Positions 31,563 to 62,823 of a DNA stretch of 64,000 nt are shown in pieces. The notes beneath the pieces are model-generated. The model was not told the origin of the DNA and searched no databases. It saw nothing but the letters and a program-made list of their open reading frames with translations. The DNA is taken from the IMG/VR virus record IMGVR_UViG_2799112954_000004, positions 1 through 64,000 of that record; one strand, given 5' to 3'. A program made the translations under genes and the position numbers. This DNA is from a virus (Duplodnaviria; Caudoviricetes). Numbering within the stretch: position 1 is the stretch's first letter; every line of letters begins with the position of its first letter.

Positions 31563-32357
31563 TTAGAACTGATCGGCCAAATCGTCAAGTTCCTTATCAG
31601 TTAACTGTTTGGGTTTGTCGTCCCCATCGGAGTCATCTTTCTTGTGGGTGCCAGCCGTTCCTGCCTCGGAAGGTCCGAGCTTCTTCAGACCAGCATCTGC
31701 TCGCTCCTGATTGTACGACTCCAAATCCTCGGTCACCTCGTCAAGATAGTCCTGGAAATCGTCTTCAGACTTGAAAGTGCTGGCAATTCTGTCAAACTCT
31801 CTCAATCGTCTCTCGCCGAATTTACCGGTGTCTTTGAGGATGGCTTGCAGTTTGGCTCTGCGGCCATTCGAGACATTTCCCTGCTTCAGTCTGGAAACCT
31901 CATCGCTCAGCTTATTCACAGAATCAGCCAAACTCTTTGCCCACGCCGGAGTAGCGTCCTTGTCATCATCATTTTCCTTCTTGGATTTGGCGCGACGTTG
32001 CTGACCATTCTTCTTACGGCCTGCCTTTCCTTCATCGCCATCGGGATCGTCATCACCGTTAGCGGAGTCGTCCGGCTCATCGTCATCATCGTCGTCTTCG
32101 TCTTGGTCGTGCTCTTGCCGATACTTGGCAATAGTACGCTGTGCGGAAATCTGTCCGTACTTGAGGAGTTCCGTTGCCTTTTCGATGGCTTCATCAATGG
32201 CACCGTCAACGTCCTCGTCGGAGGCATTATCTTCGACATCAAGGTTATCGGCAATCTTAGCAGCGATACCCTTAATCTCACTACGACTGAAACCGAGCGC
32301 CTTTACATCCTTACTCGTTTTCAGCTTCTTCAGAACTTTTTGAAAATGTTTGTTCAT
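31563..32357 (-). CDS. Capsid scaffolding protein
   Basis: Highly acidic helical protein (poly-D run), PAWAKSL motif, upstream of capsid genes. Confidence 0.7.
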   Translation of the reverse strand: MNKHFQKVLKKLKTSKDVKALGFSRSEIKGIAAKIADNLDVEDNASDEDVDGAIDEAIEKATELLKYGQISAQRTIAKYRQEHDQDEDDDDDDEPDDSANGDDDPDGDEGKAGRKKNGQQRRAKSKKENDDDKDATPAWAKSLADSVNKLSDEVSRLKQGNVSNGRRAKLQAILKDTGKFGERRLREFDRIASTFKSEDDFQDYLDEVTEDLESYNQERADAGLKKLGPSEAGTAGTHKKDDSDGDDKPKQLTDKELDDLADQF

Positions 32358-32473
32358 TACTATTATAGTTTAATGTGAGTTATCGCAGTCGTATGCGAAC
32401 AGACTTTCTCAGAACCATATAGCAAGAGCAATGTTTCAACTAAGTTCTGTTGCGCACGTCTTACTACGCATCG

Positions 32474-32503
32474 CAAAAATACGAAATATATTTGAAAGAC
32501 AAA
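32474..32503 (-). promoter_or_regulatory. Class II promoter for head operon
   Basis: TTTGTCTTTCAAATATATTTCG-TATTTTTG. Confidence 0.7.
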
Positions 32504-33532: not shown

Positions 33533-33826
33533 TTACAAACAGATTAAACGGTTCTTTGTTTCTGCATACTTCATAGCTCTCTCGATTCCGTCTTTCTGGC
33601 CGTTGAGTTTTGCGATTACTCTTTCTACCTTCTCAACCTCTGCCAGGTCCTTAGCGAACAATTCTGCACCGCACTTGACGGTGTTCATTCGCTTATTGAG
33701 GGAACGGATCTGCTGCTTTACCTTACGGCTGTTGATGTACTGACCAGCGTCTATGAACGCGAACAGCTTGTTGGCCATAGAGTCGGAACTGGTCTGCTTG
33801 ATTTGCAGTAACTCTTTTGTTTCCAT
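33533..33826 (-). CDS. Hypothetical coiled-coil protein
   Basis: Likely start METKELL at 33826, preceded by shared leader GTAAATAAGAAAC...AAAAGCA. Confidence 0.65.
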   Translation of the reverse strand: METKELLQIKQTSSDSMANKLFAFIDAGQYINSRKVKQQIRSLNKRMNTVKCGAELFAKDLAEVEKVERVIAKLNGQKDGIERAMKYAETKNRLICL

Positions 33827-33855
33827 TGCTTTTAACTTTATGCGTTTCTTATTTA

Positions 33856-34125
33856 CTACTTCCAAGGATAATCCATCTCGAACTTCATAGCAACCGTCTC
33901 GCTCTTCTTGAACGATACGCTGCAAATCCCGTAATTCTTATCGCTACGATAGATGATTTTGCCGAGGCCCTTAACAAAGGCTCTGTGGCCAACGCTCATA
34001 AGGTAATCAATAGCGTCTCTCACAGTTCCGAAAGACTTGACGACCGATACCTCTGTCTCCTCCATCTTCTTAGCCTCGTTATTGAGGTGGGAGACTGTTC
34101 TGACGATTTTCACTTCCTTTTCCAT
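33856..34125 (-). CDS. Hypothetical early-type protein
   Basis: First gene after class I promoter copy 1. Confidence 0.65.
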   Translation of the reverse strand: MEKEVKIVRTVSHLNNEAKKMEETEVSVVKSFGTVRDAIDYLMSVGHRAFVKGLGKIIYRSDKNYGICSVSFKKSETVAMKFEMDYPWK

Positions 34126-34142
34126 TGCTTTTGGTGTTTATA

Positions 34143-34239
34143 ATGTTTCTTATTTACAAGTGTAAAGGTAGTTATTTTCACCGATTTATGCAAACAAAGT
34201 GCCGATTATTTTCTTTCTCGAGAACTAAAGAAACTTAAC
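34143..34239 (-). promoter_or_regulatory. Class I repeated promoter/leader, copy 1
   Basis: GTTAA...TTTG-N20-TACCTTTA-CACTTGTAAATAAGAAACAT. Confidence 0.8.
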
Positions 34240-38403: not shown

Positions 38404-38519
38404 TGTTTTTAGCAACTTTTTTGCCGCCAACGAAACATTTTGCACTTTCTACTAACTTTTGCCTTCAAAAGTAAATAAGAAACTGCCTCTGCAGAAAAAA
38501 CTATTTTCGACTGATGGAG

Positions 38520-39049: not shown

Positions 39050-40009
39050 TTATTCCTCGTACAAATACTTGAAAGCCGCCTCTATGATGGAGGGGTAGGC
39101 CATATCCTTATACTTTCCGAAATGCCACAGATAGGTTCCATAGGTCCGTGCTATCTGACCAACAGTCATATTCATGATTCCTCGCTTCACTATCTCGGTC
39201 TCAGTATCGGTAGAGATCTCCACTCTCTCAAAGACTGCCTCCTGCACATTGCCATCCTTGTCTTCAATGAGAGCTGTCTTACTGGTGTGGACGTAGCCAC
39301 TCCAATCTCTGAAATTCTTCTGCTTGTAGCCTACCAGGTTGCCCTCGCCACGGAACTTACGGCCAGTGGTCACCTTACAAGGGATGGAAACCTTGCAGTC
39401 GAACTTACCAAAGAACATCGACGGACAAGACACGTTCTTGGAGAAATACTCAGCCGAAAACTTCTTAAAGTCCTCAGCACAACTGTCCGGCATCTTACTG
39501 ATGTCGTTATTCTCCCAACATGGGAGCATCTCGTTTCCATGACCGCTATCCCAATCAACGAACACCTTTACCAACCGATGGCAGATGGAGTCCCAGCCGA
39601 GGTAATCAAAGCAATCTCCACCACCGCCATTGCCTATGTAGTACACCGGATTCTTCTTTCGGTTAGCTTCTTTCTCAGCCTGCTCAGCCTTATACTTAGC
39701 TTCCTCAGCCGCTTTCTGTTTCTCGATTGTGTCCTTTGTACACTTCAAGAAGTATTCCGAGTAAGTATTAAGGACTTCCTCGAGAGCCTTAATGGTGCCA
39801 TTGTTCATAGCCTTTACCTCGGCTGGAGTCATCTTTAGGGTGATGGCATATTGCTTCACCTCATCCTCAGATAATCCATTCAGAGAGTCGATAATTTTCT
39901 GATACGTCTCCGGACTCTTAACCTTCTGACTGGTTATGGAATCCACACACATCTGCTTGCAGGAAGTGTAATACTTCTCCTCTACAGCTACTAATCCTTT
40001 CTTAGTCAT
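39050..40009 (-). CDS. Hypothetical early-type protein
   Basis: 319 aa, directly after class I promoter copy 2. Confidence 0.7.
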   Translation of the reverse strand: MTKKGLVAVEEKYYTSCKQMCVDSITSQKVKSPETYQKIIDSLNGLSEDEVKQYAITLKMTPAEVKAMNNGTIKALEEVLNTYSEYFLKCTKDTIEKQKAAEEAKYKAEQAEKEANRKKNPVYYIGNGGGGDCFDYLGWDSICHRLVKVFVDWDSGHGNEMLPCWENNDISKMPDSCAEDFKKFSAEYFSKNVSCPSMFFGKFDCKVSIPCKVTTGRKFRGEGNLVGYKQKNFRDWSGYVHTSKTALIEDKDGNVQEAVFERVEISTDTETEIVKRGIMNMTVGQIARTYGTYLWHFGKYKDMAYPSIIEAAFKYLYEE

Positions 40010-40020
40010 ACGCTTTATTG

Positions 40021-40117
40021 ATGTTTCTTATTTACATATGTAAAGGTACTGAATTTCACTGAGTTACGCAATCTTTTGGGCTTTTATTTCCTTCTCTAAA
40101 AGCTAAAAAAACTTAAC
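40021..40117 (-). promoter_or_regulatory. Class I repeated promoter/leader, copy 2
   Basis: ATTGCGTAACTCAGTGAAATTCAG-TACCTTTA-CATATGTAAATAAGAAACAT. Confidence 0.8.
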
Positions 40118-40493: not shown

Positions 40494-40892
40494 TTACAGC
40501 TTGTTTACCATCCAGTCTATCTCCTCGTCTGAGAGAGCGATACCGTTAGCCCGCTTCGTCTTGATGATGAAAGCGTAATCAAACTCCTGCTCGATCACAG
40601 CATCGAGGTTCCCTTTGTGATGAGCTACGAGGACTTGCTCAGCGAACTCACGCTTTTGGTTCTGGTAATCTGCTGCGAGAGCTTCAATATCTGACTCCAG
40701 CTTAGCCACCTTCTTGTTGAGGGCCGCTTTCTTATCTTCCATAGCCTTCATGTAGGGCGTTCCCAACATCACCGGGATGTCATTCTTGATATTCTCGCAC
40801 ATCGTATCGATGGTCTCAGTTCCAAACTCGTCTACCAAATAGCTGTCAGACTTCAACGACTTCAACAACTCGATTTCCTTAGCTTTTTCCAT
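40494..40892 (-). CDS. Hypothetical coiled-coil protein
   Basis: 132 aa after class I promoter copy 3. Confidence 0.7.
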   Translation of the reverse strand: MEKAKEIELLKSLKSDSYLVDEFGTETIDTMCENIKNDIPVMLGTPYMKAMEDKKAALNKKVAKLESDIEALAADYQNQKREFAEQVLVAHHKGNLDAVIEQEFDYAFIIKTKRANGIALSDEEIDWMVNKL

Positions 40893-40920
40893 TGCTTCTA
40901 ACCTTTAAGATGATTAATTT

Positions 40921-41015
40921 GTTTCTTGTTTACATATGTAAAGGTAGTGATTTTCACTTGGTTGCGCAAACAGACACCCAATTATTTTTCATTCTAAAAA
41001 CTAAAGAAACTTAAC
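40921..41015 (-). promoter_or_regulatory. Class I repeated promoter/leader, copy 3
   Basis: TTTGCGCAACCAAGTGAAAATCAC-TACCTTTA-CATATGTAAACAAGAAAC. Confidence 0.8.
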
Positions 41016-41244: not shown

Positions 41245-42245
41245 TATGCTTCCTGCTTAACTTCAACACCAACTCCAATCTTCTCGAGTATCAGCTTGGA
41301 TGCCTTGGAAACGTCCGACATTACCGATACGATGAAGTTAGGCTCTTTCTTCAGAACCTTGCACCAGCCTTCAAGATACTTGGCGTTATCGTCTCTGATG
41401 CAAGCGTCGAAGCCTAACACTGATCCACAAAGTGCTGCAGTAAGCTCTGCCACGAGCTCTTCCTTTGCGTACTCTGCTTGCGAATACTTGCCACCTCCGA
41501 TTCTTTTCAGCAAACTCTCATGGCCAGTGCTGTGAGCCATCTCGTGGATGAGCGTATCGTAGAACCTCTGACCGGACAGGTAAACCTCCTGCTCTGTATC
41601 TCCGACCTTGAACTGAGTCTTCATCGGGACCACAATCTCGAATGAACGGCACTTGTAATACGCCTCGTCAGACAACTCCTGATACTTGATCGGGCAGTAC
41701 CAACGCTGCATCGCCAGCATATCATCGATTTCAGCGTTCTCATACATTCCGAAGGTGTCCTTGGCTATCTCACGCTTGGTGAACTGTCCTTTCAGCTTCT
41801 CCACTTTCTTTGGCGCAACCTCTGCCAAATTGGTCTGGTCGAGATTGAACACGAGATAGCTCTTAAGGAACGGAGAATAGCTGTACTTCTTCTGCTCGTC
41901 TCTTCCCATAGCCTCATAGTCTTCCTCGTCAACTCGCTTACCATCCTCGTTCTTGTAGCTCGCTTTCCAAAACACTACGGGGAACGACTTGGAGCCTTTG
42001 TTCACACGGCCACCCAACTTGTTGATTTGCTTGATGGTAGCATACACCGGCAACTCAAACTTATTCATCATCGTGTTCACCAGCAGGAAGAAATCGTTCA
42101 TGCCCGAATAGTGACCACCGTTTATGTTCATCGGAGAGCCGCCGAATGATGATGTCACCCAAGGCTGCTTCCAGTCTGTGCCTACAGCTTTCATGCGCTC
42201 AATCATAAGATCGCAGAACTTCTCGATAACTAAATCTGTTTTCAT
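41244..42245 (-). CDS. ardC: ArdC-family ssDNA-binding/zincin anti-restriction protein
   Basis: WKQPW...PMNINGGHYSGMN, YATIKQINKLGGRVNKGSK, FNLDQT, HEMAHSTGH, YAKEELVAEL; true start MKTDLV at 42245. Confidence 0.85.
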   Translation of the reverse strand: MKTDLVIEKFCDLMIERMKAVGTDWKQPWVTSSFGGSPMNINGGHYSGMNDFFLLVNTMMNKFELPVYATIKQINKLGGRVNKGSKSFPVVFWKASYKNEDGKRVDEEDYEAMGRDEQKKYSYSPFLKSYLVFNLDQTNLAEVAPKKVEKLKGQFTKREIAKDTFGMYENAEIDDMLAMQRWYCPIKYQELSDEAYYKCRSFEIVVPMKTQFKVGDTEQEVYLSGQRFYDTLIHEMAHSTGHESLLKRIGGGKYSQAEYAKEELVAELTAALCGSVLGFDACIRDDNAKYLEGWCKVLKKEPNFIVSVMSDVSKASKLILEKIGVGVEVKQEA

Positions 42246-42275
42246 ACTTAGCCTCCTATTGCTTTTAACTTTAAT

Positions 42276-42366
42276 ATGTTTCTTATTTACGTATGTAAAG
42301 TTAGTAATATTCAGCGTATTACGCAAACTGGGAGCCGTTTATTTCCTTGCCTAAACAATGTTTAAC
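42276..42366 (-). promoter_or_regulatory. Class I repeated promoter/leader, copy 4
   Basis: TTTGCGTAATACGCTGAATATTAC-TAACTTTA-CATACGTAAATAAGAAACAT. Confidence 0.75.
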
Positions 42367-42381
42367 TCGTACTCATAGAGC

Positions 42382-42484
42382 AAAAAAATGTGCTGGCTAC
42401 TTTCACAAGCAAACCAGCACACCATCTACAAGTGGGTTAGCCAAAAGCAATGAAGGCATCGCCCAACTGTAAATAAGAAACATT
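42382..42484 (-). ncRNA. Candidate trans-acting antisense sRNA targeting class I leaders and start codons
   Basis: -7 box TATCTTTG at 42486-42493; 5' seed AUGUUUCUUAUUUACA; loop seed UUCAUUGCUUUU closed by GCC/GGC; GUGA-capped terminator hairpin plus U7. Confidence 0.7.
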
Positions 42485-42537
42485 GCAAAGATAAATATAT
42501 TATCTCAATAGACCTAAACAATTTAGAAGTTTTTGCA

Positions 42538-44076
42538 TTATAAAGCGTCATTCGCTATCTGTTGTAACTCACGCTCATTGGTGGAGTATGGGTAGAACGT
42601 GTTGGCCACAGCATCCATCTTATCTGGTGAGCGCTTTATCTTCTCCTTTATGTCATCCTTGGACTCTATGATAATCTTGCCATTGCTTTGGAACTTCCAT
42701 TTCGTGGACGTGACCTCCTCCATAAACTGATCATCGGGAGGCACCGCTGGCTGGAAATTATTCTTCGGGTTAAGCCACTCTCTCATTTTCCAGTGGAGAT
42801 AGGCTCGCATATTAGCAAACTCGTATTGGCCAGTGAGGTCATGCAGATTGGCTGCGCTCTCAGAGAACTTACAAGAGATGGCGTTATCGCAGCCAAGCTC
42901 TATCAACCTGGAATAGACTCCAGCTCCCTCTCCGATGGTATCTATGAAAGCACGCGCCTTGCTATTATAGAGATATACTCTCACCATGCCAGCGACCAGC
43001 ATGTGGTCTGCCTTTCCTCCCGATTGGTGCACCTTGAACTCCGGAATGTAGTTGCCGTAGCGAGGGCAGATAACGGATGAGTCTCGACCCATACCAGCAA
43101 CATCGACACCGAGCCTTGCAGACTTTCTCGGCTTGAAGTTCTGAGCATGAAGCACTTTCCACCTCTCGTTGGCAAGCTCAACCCACTCGTATGGGATGAG
43201 GACGTCCTCAGATACTCTCGGGAACATACCTCGCACTTTCACTCGGAACAGATCATCCGGACGATACACGCCTCCTTCCCATTTGAAGTCTCCTTGCCCC
43301 TCATCGTAATCTGACGGCTCTATCTTCTCGCACCACGTCTCGACCTTATCCTTTACCCATTCATAGTCCACCTGGCCCTTGATAACGACTTTCTTCTTCA
43401 CGACGTTCTCAGCATTCAGACTGTCAAGCCTAAACTTGTTGAAACGAGTGGAGCGCATAGCATTAGCCGCATATCCCATGGTAACGTTAGGGTTGAACAC
43501 AAGAAGCAACCTCGAATTGTTCTGCAAGTTGCCCTCGATAGCGTCATAGATGGTCTGTGAGATACCCGTTGCCTCGGTCACAACGAACATAATGTTGGAA
43601 GCATGGAGACCCGACCACGCCTCGGTGTTGTCATCATCAGCCTTGAAGCCAGTGAGGAACCATTCCTCATAGTCGGTACGAATATCGTTTCCGACCAAAC
43701 GGCCAGGGCAGGAGAATGGAAAACGTATCTTTGCCGACCGAATGAGTCTGCGGATCTCCGGCGTCATAATATTCTTCACCTGACGGTCCGTAGGGGCAGT
43801 CATAGCAACCTTGGTGTTCTCTACCATCACTCCGTTCTCAAAACGTGGGGTGAGGTATAGAAAACACAAAGCACAGCAAGCTGCAACGAAATCCTTACCT
43901 CTTGCTGTGCCACTTGCCACTGCGGTCATCTTATTGTTCTGGACTGACTCGACGATGGCTTGCTGCTCTTTATCAAGTCTTACTCCAAGCACATCTCTAC
44001 AAAACGCATTCCAATCCTTTCTCCAATATTCGACCGCCTTATTTATCAGCTCCTGCCTTTCCTTTTTGGTCATCTT
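42538..44076 (-). CDS. Terminase large subunit
   Basis: VASGTARGKDF (Walker A), VVTEATG (Walker B), LLLVFNP, LGVDVAGMGRDSS, RSPDKMDA; likely start MTKKERQ at 44076. Confidence 0.9.
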   Translation of the reverse strand, partial: KMTKKERQELINKAVEYWRKDWNAFCRDVLGVRLDKEQQAIVESVQNNKMTAVASGTARGKDFVAACCALCFLYLTPRFENGVMVENTKVAMTAPTDRQVKNIMTPEIRRLIRSAKIRFPFSCPGRLVGNDIRTDYEEWFLTGFKADDDNTEAWSGLHASNIMFVVTEATGISQTIYDAIEGNLQNNSRLLLVFNPNVTMGYAANAMRSTRFNKFRLDSLNAENVVKKKVVIKGQVDYEWVKDKVETWCEKIEPSDYDEGQGDFKWEGGVYRPDDLFRVKVRGMFPRVSEDVLIPYEWVELANERWKVLHAQNFKPRKSARLGVDVAGMGRDSSVICPRYGNYIPEFKVHQSGGKADHMLVAGMVRVYLYNSKARAFIDTIGEGAGVYSRLIELGCDNAISCKFSESAANLHDLTGQYEFANMRAYLHWKMREWLNPKNNFQPAVPPDDQFMEEVTSTKWKFQSNGKIIIESKDDIKEKIKRSPDKMDAVANTFYPYSTNERELQQIANDAL

Positions 44077-44521
44077 TCTCGTATCCGTCAACCATGGACT
44101 GGAGGGCACTTACCCATTCATCACTATCAACTTTCACATCTTGTCTGTCACGCCAAATGTCCGGGCGACGATTCTTCAGCCAAAAGATAGCAGCCGTAGT
44201 GTCTGGCGGTATCGGGTCCTCAGTGGTCTCCACCTTTGCTGGTTTCTGATTGCCGTTCTCGTCCATCTCCACAATAATCTTCTTATGCTTGATGACGATA
44301 TTACCAACAGCACGATTATAGAGGGACTTTGTCACCTTTGCGTCTGCAACGGATTTTCCCTCTTTCAGCGAGTCCAACAATGAGCTGTATTTCTTTTTCC
44401 ATCTATGGAACGTTCTTACAGTTATTCCAAGGATGTCTGCTATCTGCTCGTCTGTCTTTCCTTCTACGGCGAGTGCCCACACAATATGGTCATGAGTCTT
44501 TGGATTATACGTTGTTGCCAT
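44039..44521 (-). CDS. Terminase small subunit
   Basis: N-terminal HTH (TDEQIADILGITVRTFHRWKK), SLYNRAVG, PPDTTAAIFWLKNRRPDIWRD. Confidence 0.9.
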   Translation of the reverse strand: MATTYNPKTHDHIVWALAVEGKTDEQIADILGITVRTFHRWKKKYSSLLDSLKEGKSVADAKVTKSLYNRAVGNIVIKHKKIIVEMDENGNQKPAKVETTEDPIPPDTTAAIFWLKNRRPDIWRDRQDVKVDSDEWVSALQSMVDGYEKDDQKGKAGADK

Positions 44522-45419
44522 ATTTCTCTAACGCCTTTACAAGTCCTAACCAACGTTTCTTCGGAGGAATGATGCCATCTTTCTCCATGTTGTCAAGAGC
44601 CTCTTTCACTTTCTGAGCATCCTCAACAGGTATTGCACCGGCACCGAACACTCTCGTGAGTGGCACATACTCTTGCGTGGAGTCGAAATCTGCGTCAGCC
44701 ATTTTCTCCTCAGCACATTTCACCATCATATAGATGGCTTGGCCAATATTCTTTACGTTCTCAAACTCCTTGAATTTCTCGAGAGTCTGGAGCAATTTCT
44801 CATACTGATCGATGTAAGCGACACCGATGAAGTCTCTGCCGCTTGCTTTCTTGACGAGAGCTTCCAAATCCTTCACCTGATAGGGCAGGAAAAGGAACTC
44901 CATCTGCTGCCAATCGAAATCCGTCTTCGGGTCGAGCAACTTCTCAATGGTGAGCTTTGGCTCCTCGAACAAATCCTTGCCGCCATAAGACTCAATCTTA
45001 TCATCAACATCGGTAATCATCTTTGCGATTTCCCGAAGCGTGTCCTTGTCATCGTAGCCATCGATGGCATTATGGGCCAGTTGCTTTGCAGCCTTTTGGG
45101 AACGGTTGAGCCCCGATAAGTCAAGCAGGACGTACACGAACTTCAGTCCTGCGGCTTTGGCGGCTCTTATCCTATGGTGGCCACTGATGATCTCTACACG
45201 GCCATTGAAATACACGCAGAACGGAACGGACTCCAGCTGACCACGATGCTTGATATTCTCAGTCAGTTGGTTCATCATTTCGTTTGGCTGAATACGGGCG
45301 TTCTTATCCTGCTCCTTGATGATGGATATTTCAACTTTTGAAAAGACAATGCCAGTGCCCATGTCGACAAGGTACTCAACACCGTCTATTTTTGGTTTTT
45401 CTGTCTGTTCTGTTGCCAT
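44505..45419 (-). CDS. ParB/Srx-like N-terminal domain protein
   Basis: NAR...QLTENIK.RGQLESVP...EIISGHHRIRAA...QLAHNAIDG. Confidence 0.8.
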   Translation of the reverse strand: MATEQTEKPKIDGVEYLVDMGTGIVFSKVEISIIKEQDKNARIQPNEMMNQLTENIKHRGQLESVPFCVYFNGRVEIISGHHRIRAAKAAGLKFVYVLLDLSGLNRSQKAAKQLAHNAIDGYDDKDTLREIAKMITDVDDKIESYGGKDLFEEPKLTIEKLLDPKTDFDWQQMEFLFLPYQVKDLEALVKKASGRDFIGVAYIDQYEKLLQTLEKFKEFENVKNIGQAIYMMVKCAEEKMADADFDSTQEYVPLTRVFGAGAIPVEDAQKVKEALDNMEKDGIIPPKKRWLGLVKALEKYGNNV

Positions 45420-46801
45420 AGCTTCTCTTTCTTTAGAAATTCTTTCAATATCTCGTAAGGCTTTTTGTCGGTTAGCTCAGCACGATACTGGAGTTTATAA
45501 CCGATCTTCGACTTATCCTTATTGTAGCACTTCATAACACCGCGCATCTCCTTGCTCTCCGGATACTTGGTAATCATAGAAGTTTGCATATACTTGTAAT
45601 TCTTCATCTTATCTGCTGCAACGTATGGAGCAATGAGAGGCTTGCTCATACTCAGCATTACCATCAATCTGTGAAGTCTAAGATACGCGTGCTGTGGAGT
45701 GATACCGTAGATGAGCATCATTTGGTCTCCAGCAACGGAAGCAGGAGGCTGCAATGCTATTCCCATTACTCCCCAAAGCAAACCGTCAGCAAAGAGAGCG
45801 AAGTCGAGATTGACCATACCGCCACCACCTTGAAAATTGTGAGTCCACAGGTTGCGGTAATATTTTGCGATGGAGGCTGTAATCTTCTTGATTCCGATTT
45901 TGGTCTTCTCTGTTATCTCGTAATCAAGCGGCATGATGGAACAATTTAGTTTTTGCGTTTTATCCTCATTCGCCCTCGATATCATCGTGCCATTGGATAA
46001 CTGGAGGGCAACCTCCGGCTTATTCGTGGTCTGATAAACGTTGAAGTCTCCACGGCTGTTATGCCGACAGAAGATGGGGAAGCCAGCAGTTTCTCCCACC
46101 TTACATTCCTCGTAAGCGAGGATCAACGCATTCGCGTCTCCCATCAAGTCAACCATAACGTCTCTTCTTCCAGTCTCTGGGTCAAAGATGTTGTAGCTCG
46201 GCTCTTTCCACGTCACCATATCTCCAAAATTGAACTGTTGCTCGTAGCCTCCTTTGTAGGTCGGCAGCTGAGCAACAATAAGCGTCTTCTCGTCATCCTT
46301 TACTTCGTTCAGATGGTCTATCAAGTCCAGTGGTCGATAATTGATGCCGTGGAGTATTTTCTTTGCATGGTCGAGTGAAGTTTGGAAATCCTTAATGTGG
46401 CTCACTCTATTCAACTCCATATCTCTCAGCATGGAGTAGCCATAATCGTTTCCAGCCGATTTGCGAAGCCTATGGTACAGCATAGCGTAAAGCACCGTTG
46501 CTGGGTCCTTGCATTCCTCATCTGTAAAGCCCTCGATATGTATCTCTAAATCATCCAAAGGCTTGTCCATGATGGCATATCCGAAAACTGAGGAATAGAG
46601 GGTGACGTCGCTCGCTTCAATCTGATCAGGCTTGAACCCTGCTTGAACCGCTAAATTTGACATGGCGAAAGAACCAGCGCACGGCTCGACTATTCTTGTG
46701 AAACCCTGCGCTTTTGCGTTTATCATTATCTGCTTGATAAACTTCTGCTGATCAGAATGCACCTGACCAATAAACAAACTTCCTGGGGACGCAAAAATCA
46801 T
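45386..46801 (-). CDS. Adenine methyltransferase-like protein with C-terminal Mom/GNAT-like domain (putative DNA modification enzyme)
   Basis: Motif I-like IVEPCAGSF, degenerate motif IV AQLPTY; C-terminal LWTHN...FALFADGLLWGV pattern. Confidence 0.55.
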   Translation of the reverse strand: MIFASPGSLFIGQVHSDQQKFIKQIMINAKAQGFTRIVEPCAGSFAMSNLAVQAGFKPDQIEASDVTLYSSVFGYAIMDKPLDDLEIHIEGFTDEECKDPATVLYAMLYHRLRKSAGNDYGYSMLRDMELNRVSHIKDFQTSLDHAKKILHGINYRPLDLIDHLNEVKDDEKTLIVAQLPTYKGGYEQQFNFGDMVTWKEPSYNIFDPETGRRDVMVDLMGDANALILAYEECKVGETAGFPIFCRHNSRGDFNVYQTTNKPEVALQLSNGTMISRANEDKTQKLNCSIMPLDYEITEKTKIGIKKITASIAKYYRNLWTHNFQGGGGMVNLDFALFADGLLWGVMGIALQPPASVAGDQMMLIYGITPQHAYLRLHRLMVMLSMSKPLIAPYVAADKMKNYKYMQTSMITKYPESKEMRGVMKCYNKDKSKIGYKLQYRAELTDKKPYEILKEFLKKEKLWQQNRQKNQK

Positions 46802-46826
46802 ACACGAAAAAACAATGTTTCTCTTG

Positions 46827-46898
46827 TCCGGAGGGACAGTTTCGCTCTACCACCTCCTTAGCCCCTTGCTAAGTGCTCTATCATTAAGCTACCTCCGG
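46827..46898 (-). ncRNA. Degenerate tRNA-Pro(AGG)-like cloverleaf
   Basis: 72 nt with canonical arm lengths: CCGGAGG/CCTCCGG, GCTT/GAGC, CTTAG/CTAAG, variable GAGGT, GGTAG/CTGTC; loops CAAGGGG and AGCGAAA non-canonical; ends ACAA. Confidence 0.75.
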
Positions 46899-46910
46899 TT
46901 TTTCTACTCG

Positions 46911-46940
46911 CAAAGATACGAAATATATTTGAAAGACAAA
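46911..46940 (-). promoter_or_regulatory. Class II promoter for modification/terminase operon
   Basis: TTTGTCTTTCAAATATATTTCG-TATCTTTG. Confidence 0.75.
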
Positions 46941-46972
46941 TATCATTAACAAACTTTAGCAATCATCCACAC

Positions 46973-47009
46973 AAAAAGAGGCAGAGGGCTGGCACGCTCC
47001 CTCCACCTC
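46973..47009 (-). terminator. Intrinsic terminator after luxS
   Basis: GAGGTGGAGGGAGC-GTGCCA-GCCCTCTGCCTC followed by TTTTT. Confidence 0.7.
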
Positions 47010-47056
47010 AAGCAACATTACAAACCAAAAACATTATACTCGTGTCTGAATGCTAT

Positions 47057-47530
47057 TTAGTCGTAGCTCATATTCTCCGGCTTGATATTGTCGAGAACAT
47101 TCAGATACCTCTTCGCTATGCTCCTTGCTTCTTTCAGCGAATGGAAATGAGTGTTACCACACTCTTCCTCAGTAGCACCAGGTATATCTGTATCCCATTC
47201 TCTGACCGCCACAAACATACGATGGATGAGATTCAAAATCTGAGCACTGTCGTAGTCACCTTTCACAATCAGATAGAAACCAGTGAGGCATCCCATCGGC
47301 CCAAAATAGATGATGCTGTCTTTCCATTCATCATCATTTCTAAGGAATGTGGCACCAATATGCTCAATGGTGTGGGCTGCTTCTGGGAGCATATAATCTA
47401 CATTCGGCTTTTCCACTCTTATGTCGAAGGTGGTGATGATGTCTCCCGATGGCGTCCTATCCTTCCTTGACACATAGATGCCGCACTGCAGCTTCTTGTG
47501 GTCAACTTTGAAACTTTCTATCTTTTCCAT
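47057..47530 (-). CDS. luxS: S-ribosylhomocysteine lyase (AI-2 synthase)
   Basis: ESFKVDH, TTFDIR..KPN, HTIEH metal motif, GPMGCLTGFY catalytic Cys, ECGN. Confidence 0.95.
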   Translation of the reverse strand: MEKIESFKVDHKKLQCGIYVSRKDRTPSGDIITTFDIRVEKPNVDYMLPEAAHTIEHIGATFLRNDDEWKDSIIYFGPMGCLTGFYLIVKGDYDSAQILNLIHRMFVAVREWDTDIPGATEEECGNTHFHSLKEARSIAKRYLNVLDNIKPENMSYD

Positions 47531-47532
47531 TT

Positions 47533-47790
47533 TTACTCCTCCACTTTATCGTAGGTCTTCTTAAAGGCTTCGGGCTTGCAAGGGTACAGCTCACCGAGGA
47601 CCCCCTTGATGATATAGTCTCCTTTGCTTGCGTGCATTTCACCTTCGAGGGTGGGGATAACAAGTTTGTCACTATTCTCAGAAAGAAGCGAGACCTCACC
47701 ATTCGAGAACTTGGATATTTCATCAAAATTACGGCCATCCCATTGAACAGCCGTAACTTGAACTCTTTTCTTAATATACTTTCCAATCAT
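47533..47790 (-). CDS. Conserved small phage protein
   Basis: IPTLEGEMHASKGDYIIKGVLGELYPCKPEAFKKTY motif. Confidence 0.75.
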   Translation of the reverse strand: MIGKYIKKRVQVTAVQWDGRNFDEISKFSNGEVSLLSENSDKLVIPTLEGEMHASKGDYIIKGVLGELYPCKPEAFKKTYDKVEE

Positions 47791-47795
47791 AATGA

Positions 47796-49052
47796 TTACA
47801 AGCCAAAAGTCTCTCTCAGATAGTCTGCAATATCAGTCTTCTCCCAAGTGAACAGATCCACCTGCATAGTCTTCTCGGGATTATACTTGCTCTTAAAGAC
47901 CTTCGTGACCGTCCTCGGCTCACGTCCAAAGTGACCGTAGGAGGCTGTCTCAAAGTACATAGGCTGTCTCAGCGAGAACCTTTGCTCAATGAACTTCGGG
48001 CGCAAATCGAAGAAATTTCTGATGTACTCAGCAATCTCTCCGTCAGTCTTATCAACGTGGCTCTTTCCATAGGTGTTGACGAACACACTGACAGGCTGAG
48101 CAACGCCAATGGCATAAGCAAGCTGAACGAGCATTTCATCAGCAACTCCTGCAGCAACCATATTCTTGGCAATCCAGCGAGCCATATAAGCGGCAGAACG
48201 GTCAACCTTACTTGGGTCCTTGCCGGAGAAAGCACCACCGCCGTGCGCTCCACGGCCGCCATAGGTGTCAACGATAATCTTACGGCCAGTCAAACCCGTG
48301 TCTCCATGAGGACCACCGATAACGAACTTTCCAGTAGGGTTGACGTACAGCCCGAAGGCACCACTAAGCAAGTTCCGAACGTTCTTGTCCTTGATTCTCG
48401 AACGGACTCTCGGAATGAGGATGGTACGAACGTCATTCTTGATCTGCTCCTGCATAGCCTCATCTGAGCCGAACTCATCGTGCTGGGTGGAGATAACGAT
48501 ATTGTCAATGTGCAATGGCGTACCATCATCTGAATACTTAACCGTCACCTGACTCTTCGCATCGGGACGGAGGTAGGTCATCACCTTACCTTCCTTTCTG
48601 ATTGCAGTAAGTTCCTCCATCAGCAGGTTTGCCAAATAGATGGGCGTAGGCATATACGTCTCGGTCTCATTTGTTGCGTAACCGAACATCATACCTTGGT
48701 CTCCTGCTCCTTGCTCCATTACGTCTGCTGTTTCAACACCACGATTGATGTCGTCACTCTGCTCATGGATGGCATTGATGATACCACAAGAATCGTAATC
48801 AAACTGGTATTCTGCTTTCGTATAGCCTATGCGTCTGATTACTTCTCTCGCTACAGCTTGCAGGTCAATATATGCGTTGCTTCTTACCTCTCCTGCGAGA
48901 ACTACCTGCCCTGTGGTGCAAAGGGTTTCAACTGCGACATGTGACTTTGGGTCATACGCCAAAAACTGGTCTAAGATTGCGTCTGAAATCTGATCCGCAA
49001 CCTTGTCTGGGTGTCCTTCTGATACGGACTCCGAAGTGAATAAATAAGCCAT
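47796..49052 (-). CDS. metK: S-adenosylmethionine synthetase (Bacteroidetes type)
   Basis: [55 protein letters not shown]; true start MAYLFTSE at 49052. Confidence 0.97.
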
Positions 49053-49073
49053 ATAAACTAAAATAATATATTG

Positions 49074-49173
49074 CACCCGTCTTCGGATTCGGACCGAAAC
49101 TCCCGTGCGCATGGGACTCCACGTTCTATACGGCATCGCCTGCTGCCTTTTGCACTACCGTACAGGGACGGGT
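49074..49173 (-). ncRNA. tRNA-like structured element in metK leader
   Basis: ACCCGTC/GACGGGT 7-bp acceptor-like stem stacked on TTCGG/CCGAA 5-bp arm with loop TCCGAAT; three internal hairpins; ends GCAA. Confidence 0.65.
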
Positions 49174-53096: not shown

Positions 53097-53588
53097 TTAT
53101 TTATGTTCAACTTGCTTGACTATATTCTCAACTGGTACCTGACAGAGGATCCATTCACGTCCGTCTTTCAGATAGCTGATGTCGTATACCACGCAGTAGT
53201 CTGTGAATCGGACTTCCTTACTGAGCACCGTTCCCTCGCAGATTACCTTTCCGTTCTTGGCGACCTTAACCTTATCGCCCTTCTTGAACTCGCTCGTGAA
53301 GTAGCAGTAATCAACCAGCCAGGGCTTCTCACCGTACATATACCAATCAAGGCGTACGCAGCTATCGCTACCGTCGAGGCAGGAGCCGAACAATGAGCTT
53401 CCACCCATCTCCGCATTGAAATACTTCGCTCTACTGCTCACTGAGTAGCTTCTGGAAGTCTCCGAGTAGTGCACGTTGAAAGATTCCTCCTTGAATACTA
53501 CCACGCCTTTAAGAGGCTCGTTGTCACCTGGGACCATGTTGTACTGCTCCATCTTCTGACAGAACTCCGAAAAACTCATCTGTTTCAT
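53097..53588 (-). CDS. Hypothetical protein heading the PRTRC operon
   Basis: GVVVFKEESF...YSETSRSY...GSSLFGSCLDGSD..VRLDWYM; follows class I promoter copy 5. Confidence 0.7.
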   Translation of the reverse strand: MKQMSFSEFCQKMEQYNMVPGDNEPLKGVVVFKEESFNVHYSETSRSYSVSSRAKYFNAEMGGSSLFGSCLDGSDSCVRLDWYMYGEKPWLVDYCYFTSEFKKGDKVKVAKNGKVICEGTVLSKEVRFTDYCVVYDISYLKDGREWILCQVPVENIVKQVEHK

Positions 53589-53604
53589 TGCTTTAATCTT
53601 TAAT

Positions 53605-53695
53605 ATGTTTCTTATTTACAAGTGTAAAGGTACTGAATTTCACTGAGTTACGCAAGCGTTCACTCAATTATTTTTCCTTCGCTCAAAGTTTTAAC
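53605..53695 (-). promoter_or_regulatory. Class I repeated promoter/leader, copy 5
   Basis: CTTGCGTAACTCAGTGAAATTCAG-TACCTTTA-CACTTGTAAATAAGAAACAT. Confidence 0.8.
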
Positions 53696-53739: not shown

Positions 53740-54081
53740 TTAGAATGATTCAAGGAACTTCTGCAGGTAAACGTCGCTCTTGATGTCCTGCAACTTGAGA
53801 GGCTTGAAAACGATGTCCCGCTCAACTGAGAGCCCCATACTGCTGCGTAGGGACTCGAGCTCTTGGAGGGTGAAGTAGCCTAACTCGCCATCACCATATC
53901 CATTGATCGCAACCCCGAAAAGCTCACCCGTCTCGAGGTTGGCTTCGGTAACGTACCACGTCCAGGCACCTTCTGGAAGGAAAAACTTTACTGAGCATAC
54001 AGCCGACTTCACGTCTCCGTTTTGTGAACGGAGAGGGTACTTTTGCAAGCGCTTCTTAACTTCTGCTGTCATTAACTTCAT
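53740..54081 (-). CDS. DUF2958-family protein
   Basis: KFFLPEGAWTWYVTE, GELGYFTLQELE, VERD..FKP. Confidence 0.85.
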   Translation of the reverse strand: MKLMTAEVKKRLQKYPLRSQNGDVKSAVCSVKFFLPEGAWTWYVTEANLETGELFGVAINGYGDGELGYFTLQELESLRSSMGLSVERDIVFKPLKLQDIKSDVYLQKFLESF

Positions 54082-54097: not shown

Positions 54098-54188
54098 ATG
54101 TTTCTTATTTACAATAGTAAAGGTAGTGAATTTCACTGAATTACGCAAACGAAGCAACAGGTTTTTCCTTGTTCTGGAAATATTTAAC
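54098..54188 (-). promoter_or_regulatory. Class I repeated promoter/leader, copy 6
   Basis: TTTGCGTAATTCAGTGAAATTCAC-TACCTTTA-CTATTGTAAATAAGAAACAT. Confidence 0.8.
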
Positions 54189-61937: not shown

Positions 61938-62708
61938 TTACTTATCGGAATCGATGTCATAGACTCGGTCCAGTGCCAGCTCTCCCTCGCCTCTTTCAAG
62001 ATAGAACTTCTTGATGGCGTCAGAGATGCGCATTACCGTAGCCTTGCGGTAGATCTCACCGACTGGCAGGCCTTTCTTTGAGAGGTCGAAGTTACCGGGC
62101 TTTCGCTGAGAGACGATGTTGTGCTCCTTAGCTGCCTTGCTTGCGTCATCCCACTTATCGTAGCCTTCACAAGCTGAGCTGAGCCACATTGAGATTCTGC
62201 GGATAGCTTGGTCGTCGCTGACCTGCTCGAAGTATTCCTCGATGATGCAGAACTTAGCGAACACCTGCTGCGACTTGTCAGCGATGGCTTCCTCAATCTG
62301 CTGGCGGTTGAACTCGGTGCCGATGGTGAAGTGGAACTGAGGCTTCTCGGCCGGCTCTGACTTCTCATCCTCTTCTACTGGCTCTGCTTCTGTCTCGACT
62401 TCTATTTCGGTCTCGACTTCAGCATTTGACTCGGGCTTTACTTCGGTCTCGCTCTCAGCTTCGTTATCAGCCTCTACCTGGGAATTGCTCTCTTCCTCGG
62501 CCGGAACGATGGCTTCAGCAACTGGTTCTGCGGCTGCTTCCATCTCCTCGCGCTCAGACTTCTTGCGGTAGTAGGCAATCACAGCGTTAAGACTGCGGCG
62601 ACCGTGGACGCGCTCATACTCAGTGAATAAACTCTCGTTGGCTTTCAGAGCCTCATTGAATGACAAACTCTCGAAATTGCTCTTGATCTGTGACTTCAGA
62701 CTTTCCAT
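61938..62708 (-). CDS. Acidic hypothetical early-type protein
   Basis: Glu-rich linker EAETEVKPE...; follows class I promoter copy 7. Confidence 0.7.
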   Translation of the reverse strand: MESLKSQIKSNFESLSFNEALKANESLFTEYERVHGRRSLNAVIAYYRKKSEREEMEAAAEPVAEAIVPAEEESNSQVEADNEAESETEVKPESNAEVETEIEVETEAEPVEEDEKSEPAEKPQFHFTIGTEFNRQQIEEAIADKSQQVFAKFCIIEEYFEQVSDDQAIRRISMWLSSACEGYDKWDDASKAAKEHNIVSQRKPGNFDLSKKGLPVGEIYRKATVMRISDAIKKFYLERGEGELALDRVYDIDSDK

Positions 62709-62732
62709 TGCTTTTGAATTTTAGTGAATAAT

Positions 62733-62823
62733 ATGTTTCTTATTTACAAGTGTAAAGGTAGTGATTTTCACTGGGTTACGCAAACTTTTGAACTTGAAAT
62801 TTAACACCTAAACATTGTTTAAC
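62733..62823 (-). promoter_or_regulatory. Class I repeated promoter/leader, copy 7
   Basis: TTTGCGTAACCCAGTGAAAATCAC-TACCTTTA-CACTTGTAAATAAGAAACAT. Confidence 0.8.

Follow-up and report, generated by a model that had tools for sequence, protein, structure and literature searches.

The question raised by this locus is whether the short minus-strand unit that follows the large terminase gene (terL) encodes a regulatory RNA, and which genes such an RNA would control. The window, that is the whole 64,000-nucleotide stretch, was analysed together with the rest of its prophage and with related phages. The candidate, termed RNA1 here, most probably acts in trans as an antisense translational repressor of the phage's own tagged non-structural genes, as judged from sequence comparison. 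Sequence, conservation, structure covariation, RNA-target co-variation and strand and start bias were observed; from these we infer transcription, in vivo pairing and repression.

The prophage and the candidate RNA gene behind terL

The window (G000:C95:14215-78214) is contained in a Bacteroidales prophage of about 76 kb at tRNA-Ser, which runs from the tRNA-Ser and a tyrosine integrase gene (C95:12970-14214) to a partial tRNA-Ser copy near C95:89150. The prophage carries two Cro/CI-type HTH genes, an HTH_17 (xis-like) gene, an AAA_24 ATPase gene and a helicase-like gene, as well as terL, an SPP1-type portal gene and long tail genes. The phage is a temperate phage of the rumen, and the sequencing runs containing its DNA were bovine gut samples. 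The terL-based relatives were prophages of Bacteroides, Parabacteroides, Prevotella and other Bacteroidales, while the GenBank phage collection held no close relative (best terL match 30%). LoVEphage was considered as a related group and the link was not established. Upstream of the terminase genes, positions 44505-49136 carry ParB-N, DAM-like/GNAT fusion and SAM synthetase genes, which suggests a DNA-modification module. The cro-side (L612:8440-8540) and xis-side (L612:10790-10870) early promoters have a near-identical leader of about 35 nt in common, and the repeated AGCTA elements upstream of both are probably CI operators.

The features of the RNA1 locus are as follows.

42538..44109, minus strand: terL (phrog_2, E 3e-30), with RNA1 as its immediate 3' neighbour
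42486..42493, minus strand: Bacteroidetes -7 promoter box of RNA1, TAnnTTTG, conserved in 22 of 23 aligned homologues with unchanged spacing to the RNA 5' end
42382..42483, minus strand: RNA1, candidate sRNA of about 100 nt directly after the terL stop (42540-42538), from sequence, predicted fold and homologues
42468..42483, minus strand: seed 1 (RNA1 nt 1-16, of which nt 1-8 are unpaired), which is antisense to the dispersed cassette leaders at their 5' end
42443..42454, minus strand: seed 2 (nt 30-41), the anti-start-codon seed with the family-invariant core CATTGCT
42413..42428, minus strand: seed 3 (nt 56-71), extending into the terminator 5' arm, with a 16-nt exact complement in the xis-operon leader (L612:10710-10725, minus strand, outside the window)
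42382..42422, minus strand: predicted GUGA-capped intrinsic terminator with U7 (42388-42382), in which 9 of 12 pairs show compensatory changes in 18 homologues

The -7 box at 42493-42486, the RNA start at 42483 and the U7 tract were all borne out where an earlier sequence-only reading had placed them, and 21 nt further upstream a -33-like TTTA was located at 42518-42515. The GUGA-capped terminator that it described is also present, but a simple terminator scan makes no call there because the stem has an internal mismatch. The proposal that the 12-nt seed 2 forms the apical loop was upheld in the MFE and centroid folds (z = -4.75), with an unpaired probability of 0.99; mean values for the seed were 0.43-0.99. 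Searches of Rfam with RNA1 of the window and of relatives gave no gathering match, the best E-value of 2.5 being to an unrelated snoRNA. Metatranscriptome contigs from four studies covered RNA1, ardC and terL alike, and such contigs may be DNA.

The unit of promoter, seed and terminator was found after terL in most of about 200 relatives from viral, genome and metagenome collections, among them many of gut and rumen. Prevotella vespertina A2879 and Prevotella sp. KH2C16 are among its carriers (L091, L093). The family RNAs are 70-100 bases long and consist of the TAnnTTTG box, a variable 5' hairpin or single strand, the seed with its CATTGCT core and the GUGA-capped terminator. The seed is invariant while the flanking stems vary with compensation, and in two relatives (L081, L273) the seed and terminator are all that remains behind the terL stop. 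A kissing-loop mechanism had been proposed from the fold of the window RNA. This mechanism is unsupported, as the relatives have the seed in a single-stranded linker between two hairpins and the target leaders are A-rich and without structure. The long basal stem that places the seed in a loop is confined to the window phage and its 99% twin, and for this reason the kissing-loop picture is not general. A scan of viral contigs with a 15-nt seed returned chance matches apart from the twin phage.

Some variants of the unit were also observed. In one human-gut lineage (L006:6803-6822 and kin) the stretch from the terL stop to the -7 box contains a 13-nt complement of the cassette leaders that is not part of the predicted RNA; this fits either a longer form derived from the terL 3'-UTR or an operator. 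About 1.65 kb downstream of terL in the L370 genome (L529) a further seed and GUGA-terminator unit is possibly a duplicate of RNA1. At L038:11540-11640 the interior of the terminator is inverted relative to close kin, probably an assembly artefact or a hairpin inversion.

Predicted target leaders and their co-variation with RNA1

The target leaders in the window, identified by complementarity, are listed below.

62704..62748, minus strand: leader (seeds 1 and 2) of the 256-aa gene starting at 62708
54098..54113, minus strand: leader (seed 1) of the DUF2958 gene starting at 54081
53584..53620, minus strand: leader (seed 1 and 11/12 of seed 2) at the head of the PRTRC cassette
42255..42291, minus strand: leader of ardC (15/16 of seed 1, and in front of the AUG at 42245 a partial seed 2)
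40888..40934, minus strand: leader of a 132-aa gene (14/16 of seed 1, 15/16 in the twin phage L001; 11/12 of seed 2)
40021..40036, minus strand: leader (seed 1) of the 319-aa gene starting at 40009
34121..34158, minus strand: leader (seeds 1 and 2) of an 89-aa gene
33822..33856, minus strand: internal target (13 nt of seed 1, and seed 2) of a 97-aa second gene with no promoter box in front

The claim that the first 16 nt of RNA1 are exactly complementary to five leaders was reproduced at 34143, 40021, 53605, 54098 and 62733, as were the partial complements at 42276 (15/16), 40919 (14/16) and 33844 (13 nt). Eleven matches to seed 1 were obtained at no more than three mismatches against 0.74 expected, and no shuffle reached 11. 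The 13-nt core of seed 1 occurs in 11 copies in the prophage and in none in the remaining 2.75 Mb of the genome; the U-tract of a small terminator probably accounts for the plus-strand 13-mer at 38471. The start-codon complements reported for seed 2 held only in part. They are exact at 33826, 34125 and 62708 (with one G-U pair), whereas 53588 has only 11/12; the partial site at 40892 has 11/12 as had been indicated. The leaders of 54081, 40009 and ardC have no seed 2 site at the AUG, and the ATPase and helicase starts are untagged in the window phage. Seeds 1 and 2 do stand in permuted order compared with the dispersed leaders, and on one cassette leader they cannot pair together without crossing helices.

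The scan of the whole prophage placed the strongest target outside the window, in the leader of the xis operon; neither this site nor the third seed is in the sequence-only reading.

L612:10690-10725 = G000:C95:88690-88725, minus strand: two-seed target in the xis-operon leader, about 10.5 kb past the window end

This leader holds a 16-nt complement to RNA1 nt 56-71 and, after 5 nt, a 15-nt complement to nt 1-15. The seed order is collinear with RNA1, and the middle hairpin is predicted to be looped out as a three-way junction. The cofold gain was -21 kcal/mol for the xis leader and -8 to -11 kcal/mol for the cassette leaders, against -1 to -4 kcal/mol for portal, scaffold, capsid, terS and the untagged ATPase. 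RNAduplex energies calculated without accessibility were uninformative. The site, 32 kb from RNA1, overlaps the stop of a 21-codon uORF and precedes a hydrophobic ORF of about 70 residues without a Pfam match, a kil/icd-like arrangement. Similar sites were located upstream of xis in L087 (25 + 16 nt), L331 (2 x 18 nt) and L372 (15 nt), and none was found in L309 and L311. A 14-nt complement of seed 1 also lies on the plus strand about 100 nt upstream of the integrase start, between tRNA-Ser and int (L613:852-865; G000:C95:12852-12865 region); int may be a target, and the match may be real or due to chance.

The co-variation of RNA and gene starts was scored as exact complements of at least 12 nt, for every RNA against every genome near ORF starts, in 17 whole or near-whole phages. 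One record (G168, L331) has two terL regions and may be chimeric, and its RNA was taken from the other terL. The cognate RNA ranked first in 10 of the 17 phages and among the top four in 15, with a trace permutation p = 5e-5 that is overstated because several of the 17 are close kin. The window phage was the clearest case: its RNA scored 41 on its own genome and 0-3 on the others, and the other RNAs scored 0-1 on the window genome. The poorest cognate fits were L095 (rank 13) and L072 (rank 10 by exact matches). Cognate matches of at least 12 nt numbered 166 on the sense strand against 12, and 155 of the 166 lay near ORF starts; shuffled RNAs gave less than one match per genome. The seed of the window RNA complements AAAAGCAATG, the counterpart of which in most relatives is AAGAGCAATG, and the start tags of the window have changed accordingly. 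At the AAA_24 ortholog start, perfect in-register helices of 16-20 bp were found in L087, L309, L311, L359 and L091/L093, with five distinct sequence states, and their distal half pairs with the phage's own terminator arm. The helicase start behaves in the same way, and in the relatives perfect complements of 16-25 nt extend into the terminator arm. The 5' seed matches its own leaders best in the window phage, L084, L331, L372, L370 and L072 and is absent in others. The test proposed with the original idea, namely that seeds should co-vary with their leaders across relatives, was therefore passed, which supports a trans-encoded multi-target antisense RNA. RNA1 agrees with the general class of trans-encoded base-pairing sRNAs in being a separate, putatively transcribed non-coding gene with limited, co-varying complementarity to several mRNAs.

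The pattern of start codons, sense strand and co-variation is that expected of RNA-RNA pairing across the start codon, and it does not fit a DNA operator. The operator alternative holds that a phage protein binds the repeats as DNA sites, of which one lies inverted over a promoter after terL, and that the hairpin is only the terL terminator. It draws on the position of seven of nine sense seed 1 sites in the window phage at about +1 of a promoter, on one lineage with a leader complement between the -33 and -7 boxes, and on the short inverted repeats between the boxes of the cassette promoters. The invariant seed is centred on the AUG, however, and 164 of 253 start tags are at internal genes while 89 have a promoter box within 65 nt; tail regions have almost no tags. 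The sites are non-palindromic and almost all on one strand, the co-variation reaches into the terminator stem arm, L072 pairs through a bulge and L370 has a seed 1 site inside a coding region. The operator alternative is hence considered improbable, and a repressor could act in addition to RNA1. The cassette promoters themselves (34160-34200, 40038-40080, 40936-40980, 53622-53665, 54115-54160 and 62750-62795) have a conserved spacer in common; the short inverted repeat that it holds between the -33 and -7 boxes may be the operator of a second layer of control, at the level of transcription.

A further alternative is that the tag is an efficient Bacteroidota start context spread by cassette duplication, with the complement behind terL as an inversion relic, or that the unit encodes a hydrophobic peptide of 26 residues on a leaderless mRNA. 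A start context finds support in the A-richness typical of Bacteroidota leaders and in the clear paralogy of the cassette leaders; a 26-codon frame is open from the first AUG of RNA1 in the window phage. This frame is not kept in the relatives. Few host starts (0.5%) have the tag, the seeds are permuted, the family seed is invariant between compensating stems, and the non-paralogous ATPase, helicase and xis-operon genes have long co-varying complements. Both forms of this alternative are very improbable.

Proposed working of RNA1 and a putative second RNA

RNA1 would be transcribed, most likely constitutively, from a host-sigma promoter of its own, and it may in addition arise as the 3' terminus of the late terS-terL transcript. 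It would pair with the translation-initiation regions of the non-structural genes and block 30S loading, the family-wide single-stranded seed covering the common start tag A-R-AGC-A-AUG. The private seeds of individual phages (5' end or hairpin loop, and 5' arm of the terminator) would give longer duplexes on the first gene of the xis operon, the AAA_24 ATPase and the helicase. In the window phage the 5' seed would carry most of the pairing, with the extra hairpin joining seeds 1 and 3 on the xis leader at the three-way junction. The cassettes with host-type promoters would be expressed briefly on entry into a naive cell and silenced once RNA1 accumulates.

The RNA may also pair without repressing translation, by activating or stabilising its targets, by triggering premature termination or decay, or by guiding a protein to DNA or RNA. 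The same co-variation data and the overlap of the xis site with the uORF stop agree with such a role, and the CI RNA of phage P4 acts through termination, which is a further point in its favour. The seed occludes the AUG itself, which argues against it. For protein guiding, no TnpB/Cas12f-like gene was found in the prophage and no adjacent motif was seen beyond the tag; PF07282 (the criterion for TnpB/Cas12f-type proteins, including TldR and dCas12f) had no match on the prophage contig, its sole match being a broken copy on another contig. Pairing of this kind is regarded as unlikely, and translational repression is retained as the preferred reading.

As to the purpose of the repression, silencing in the lysogen was given an even chance, and the other half was divided equally between an early-to-late shut-off and a combined or dose-limiting role. 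Lysogen silencing with a short entry burst is favoured because the targets include excision and replication genes and cassettes with host-type promoters of their own. Given its position behind terL, RNA1 would also rise late in infection.

A second RNA with the same anti-start seed, absent from the sequence-only reading, was located before the head genes.

32357..32481, minus strand: RNA2 (RNA 32471-32357), head-operon leader with predicted structure, ahead of a probable scaffold gene at 32357; it has a -7-like box of its own, a P1 hairpin and a P2 loop bearing the anti-start seed at 32433-32424

RNA2 had no Rfam match. Four phages without RNA1 (L069, L074, L085, L357) keep 6-13 start tags, and all four have RNA2; its seed is present in most other phages and in the window. 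The seed is lost in some RNA1-bearing phages (L049, L084, L095, L370, L372), and L097 has neither RNA and untagged cassette starts. The P1 hairpin co-varies, and the terminator hairpin is strong in the relatives and degenerate in the window phage. Between the P1 3' strand and the inner terminator arm, 73% of cells were paired in a hand-chosen register against 21-48% in other registers, which suggests that RNA2 may be an attenuator with a terminator/antiterminator switch. The RNA2 seed of the window matches the family tag and not the local variant; with the degenerate terminator, this makes RNA1 the probable working regulator in the window phage. As a tentative reading, a circuit of two RNAs may govern the lysis-lysogeny programme in a large family of Bacteroidales phages. 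RNA1 and RNA2 would use the same anti-start seed against a matching tag on every non-structural gene to be silenced, private seed extensions would define phage-specific immunity groups, and the seed loop of RNA2 may let early mRNAs throw the switch that licenses the head genes.

Comparison with known systems

A comparable antisense RNA of a temperate phage is the CI RNA of P4. In the C4 antisense RNA of phages P1/P7 (Rfam RF01695), two distinct seeds make the contact with early leaders, according to PMC8198154 after Citron and Schuster 1990. RNA1 likewise has two separate seeds, of 16 and 15 nt, on an early lytic leader, that of the xis operon, and its top target is an operon starting with a small hydrophobic ORF. 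C4 and CI are needed to hold lytic functions down and are processed from the leader of the one operon they control (icd-ant, kil), whereas RNA1 is a separate gene with a different fold, tens of kb from most of its 4-25 tagged targets. The Rfam C4 models had no match in the window or the relatives.

GibS (RF04182) and FopS (RF04319) of Bacteroides thetaiotaomicron repress by covering the AUG, and GibS uses two seeds (PMC11697453). RNA1 has in common with them the sigma-ABfr -7 promoter, a single-stranded U-rich seed with CAU over the AUG and an intrinsic terminator. They differ in being chromosomal and aimed at glycan-use genes, and their R1 seed (from the supplement of that paper) departs from that of RNA1 after a common UUUUCAU. 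The RNA1 model cross-matches host GibS/FopS-like units, which were all that it returned from 150 genomes of the host family. Against the GibS/FopS models the phage RNA1 loci gave no match at E 0.1, whereas the host look-alikes matched at E 0.004-0.012; common ancestry is possible. Host units with promoter, U-rich tract and GUGA-terminator (L498 = G000:C54:67-154; L505-L510) were also noted, two of which score weakly as GibS/FopS and one type of which lies just upstream of tmRNA. No RRM_1 (RbpB-type) chaperone gene was found in the 87% complete host MAG.

The SAS repeats of Cluster K mycobacteriophages (11-19 copies) form an asymmetric tag of unexplained function at non-structural gene starts in one orientation, and four K1 phages have one copy in the opposite orientation (PMC3203893). 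SAS differs from the RNA1 tags in sequence and host phylum, and no cognate RNA is reported for it. For RNA2 the model is StxS, the lambda PR' type short RNA, in which a late-promoter leader terminated in the lysogen acts as an Hfq-dependent sRNA on stx1B and rpoS (PMC7547250); RNA2 has instead a phage anti-start seed and an apparent RNA antiterminator.

The statement that no such system is described for Bacteroidota phages agrees with our literature searches, which found none; the candidate-RNA catalogue PMC8040213 gave no motif match in the first 200 of its 408 files, and a bare listing in this catalogue is possible. Known phage antisense RNAs control one operon, whereas RNA1 looks like the reader of a genome-wide regulon with a start-codon tag, in a widespread gut and rumen Bacteroidales prophage family whose hosts are without Hfq. 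Such a regulon would explain why the lysogen is not harmed by accessory cassettes such as anti-restriction ardC and PRTRC, which have host-type promoters and stand among late genes. The regulon of each phage would be readable from sequence, a testable explanation is offered for orphan start-associated repeats such as SAS, and a compact programmable repressor may become available for Bacteroides/Prevotella genetics. RNA1 resembles C4/CI and FopS/GibS in its working and is a member of neither group.
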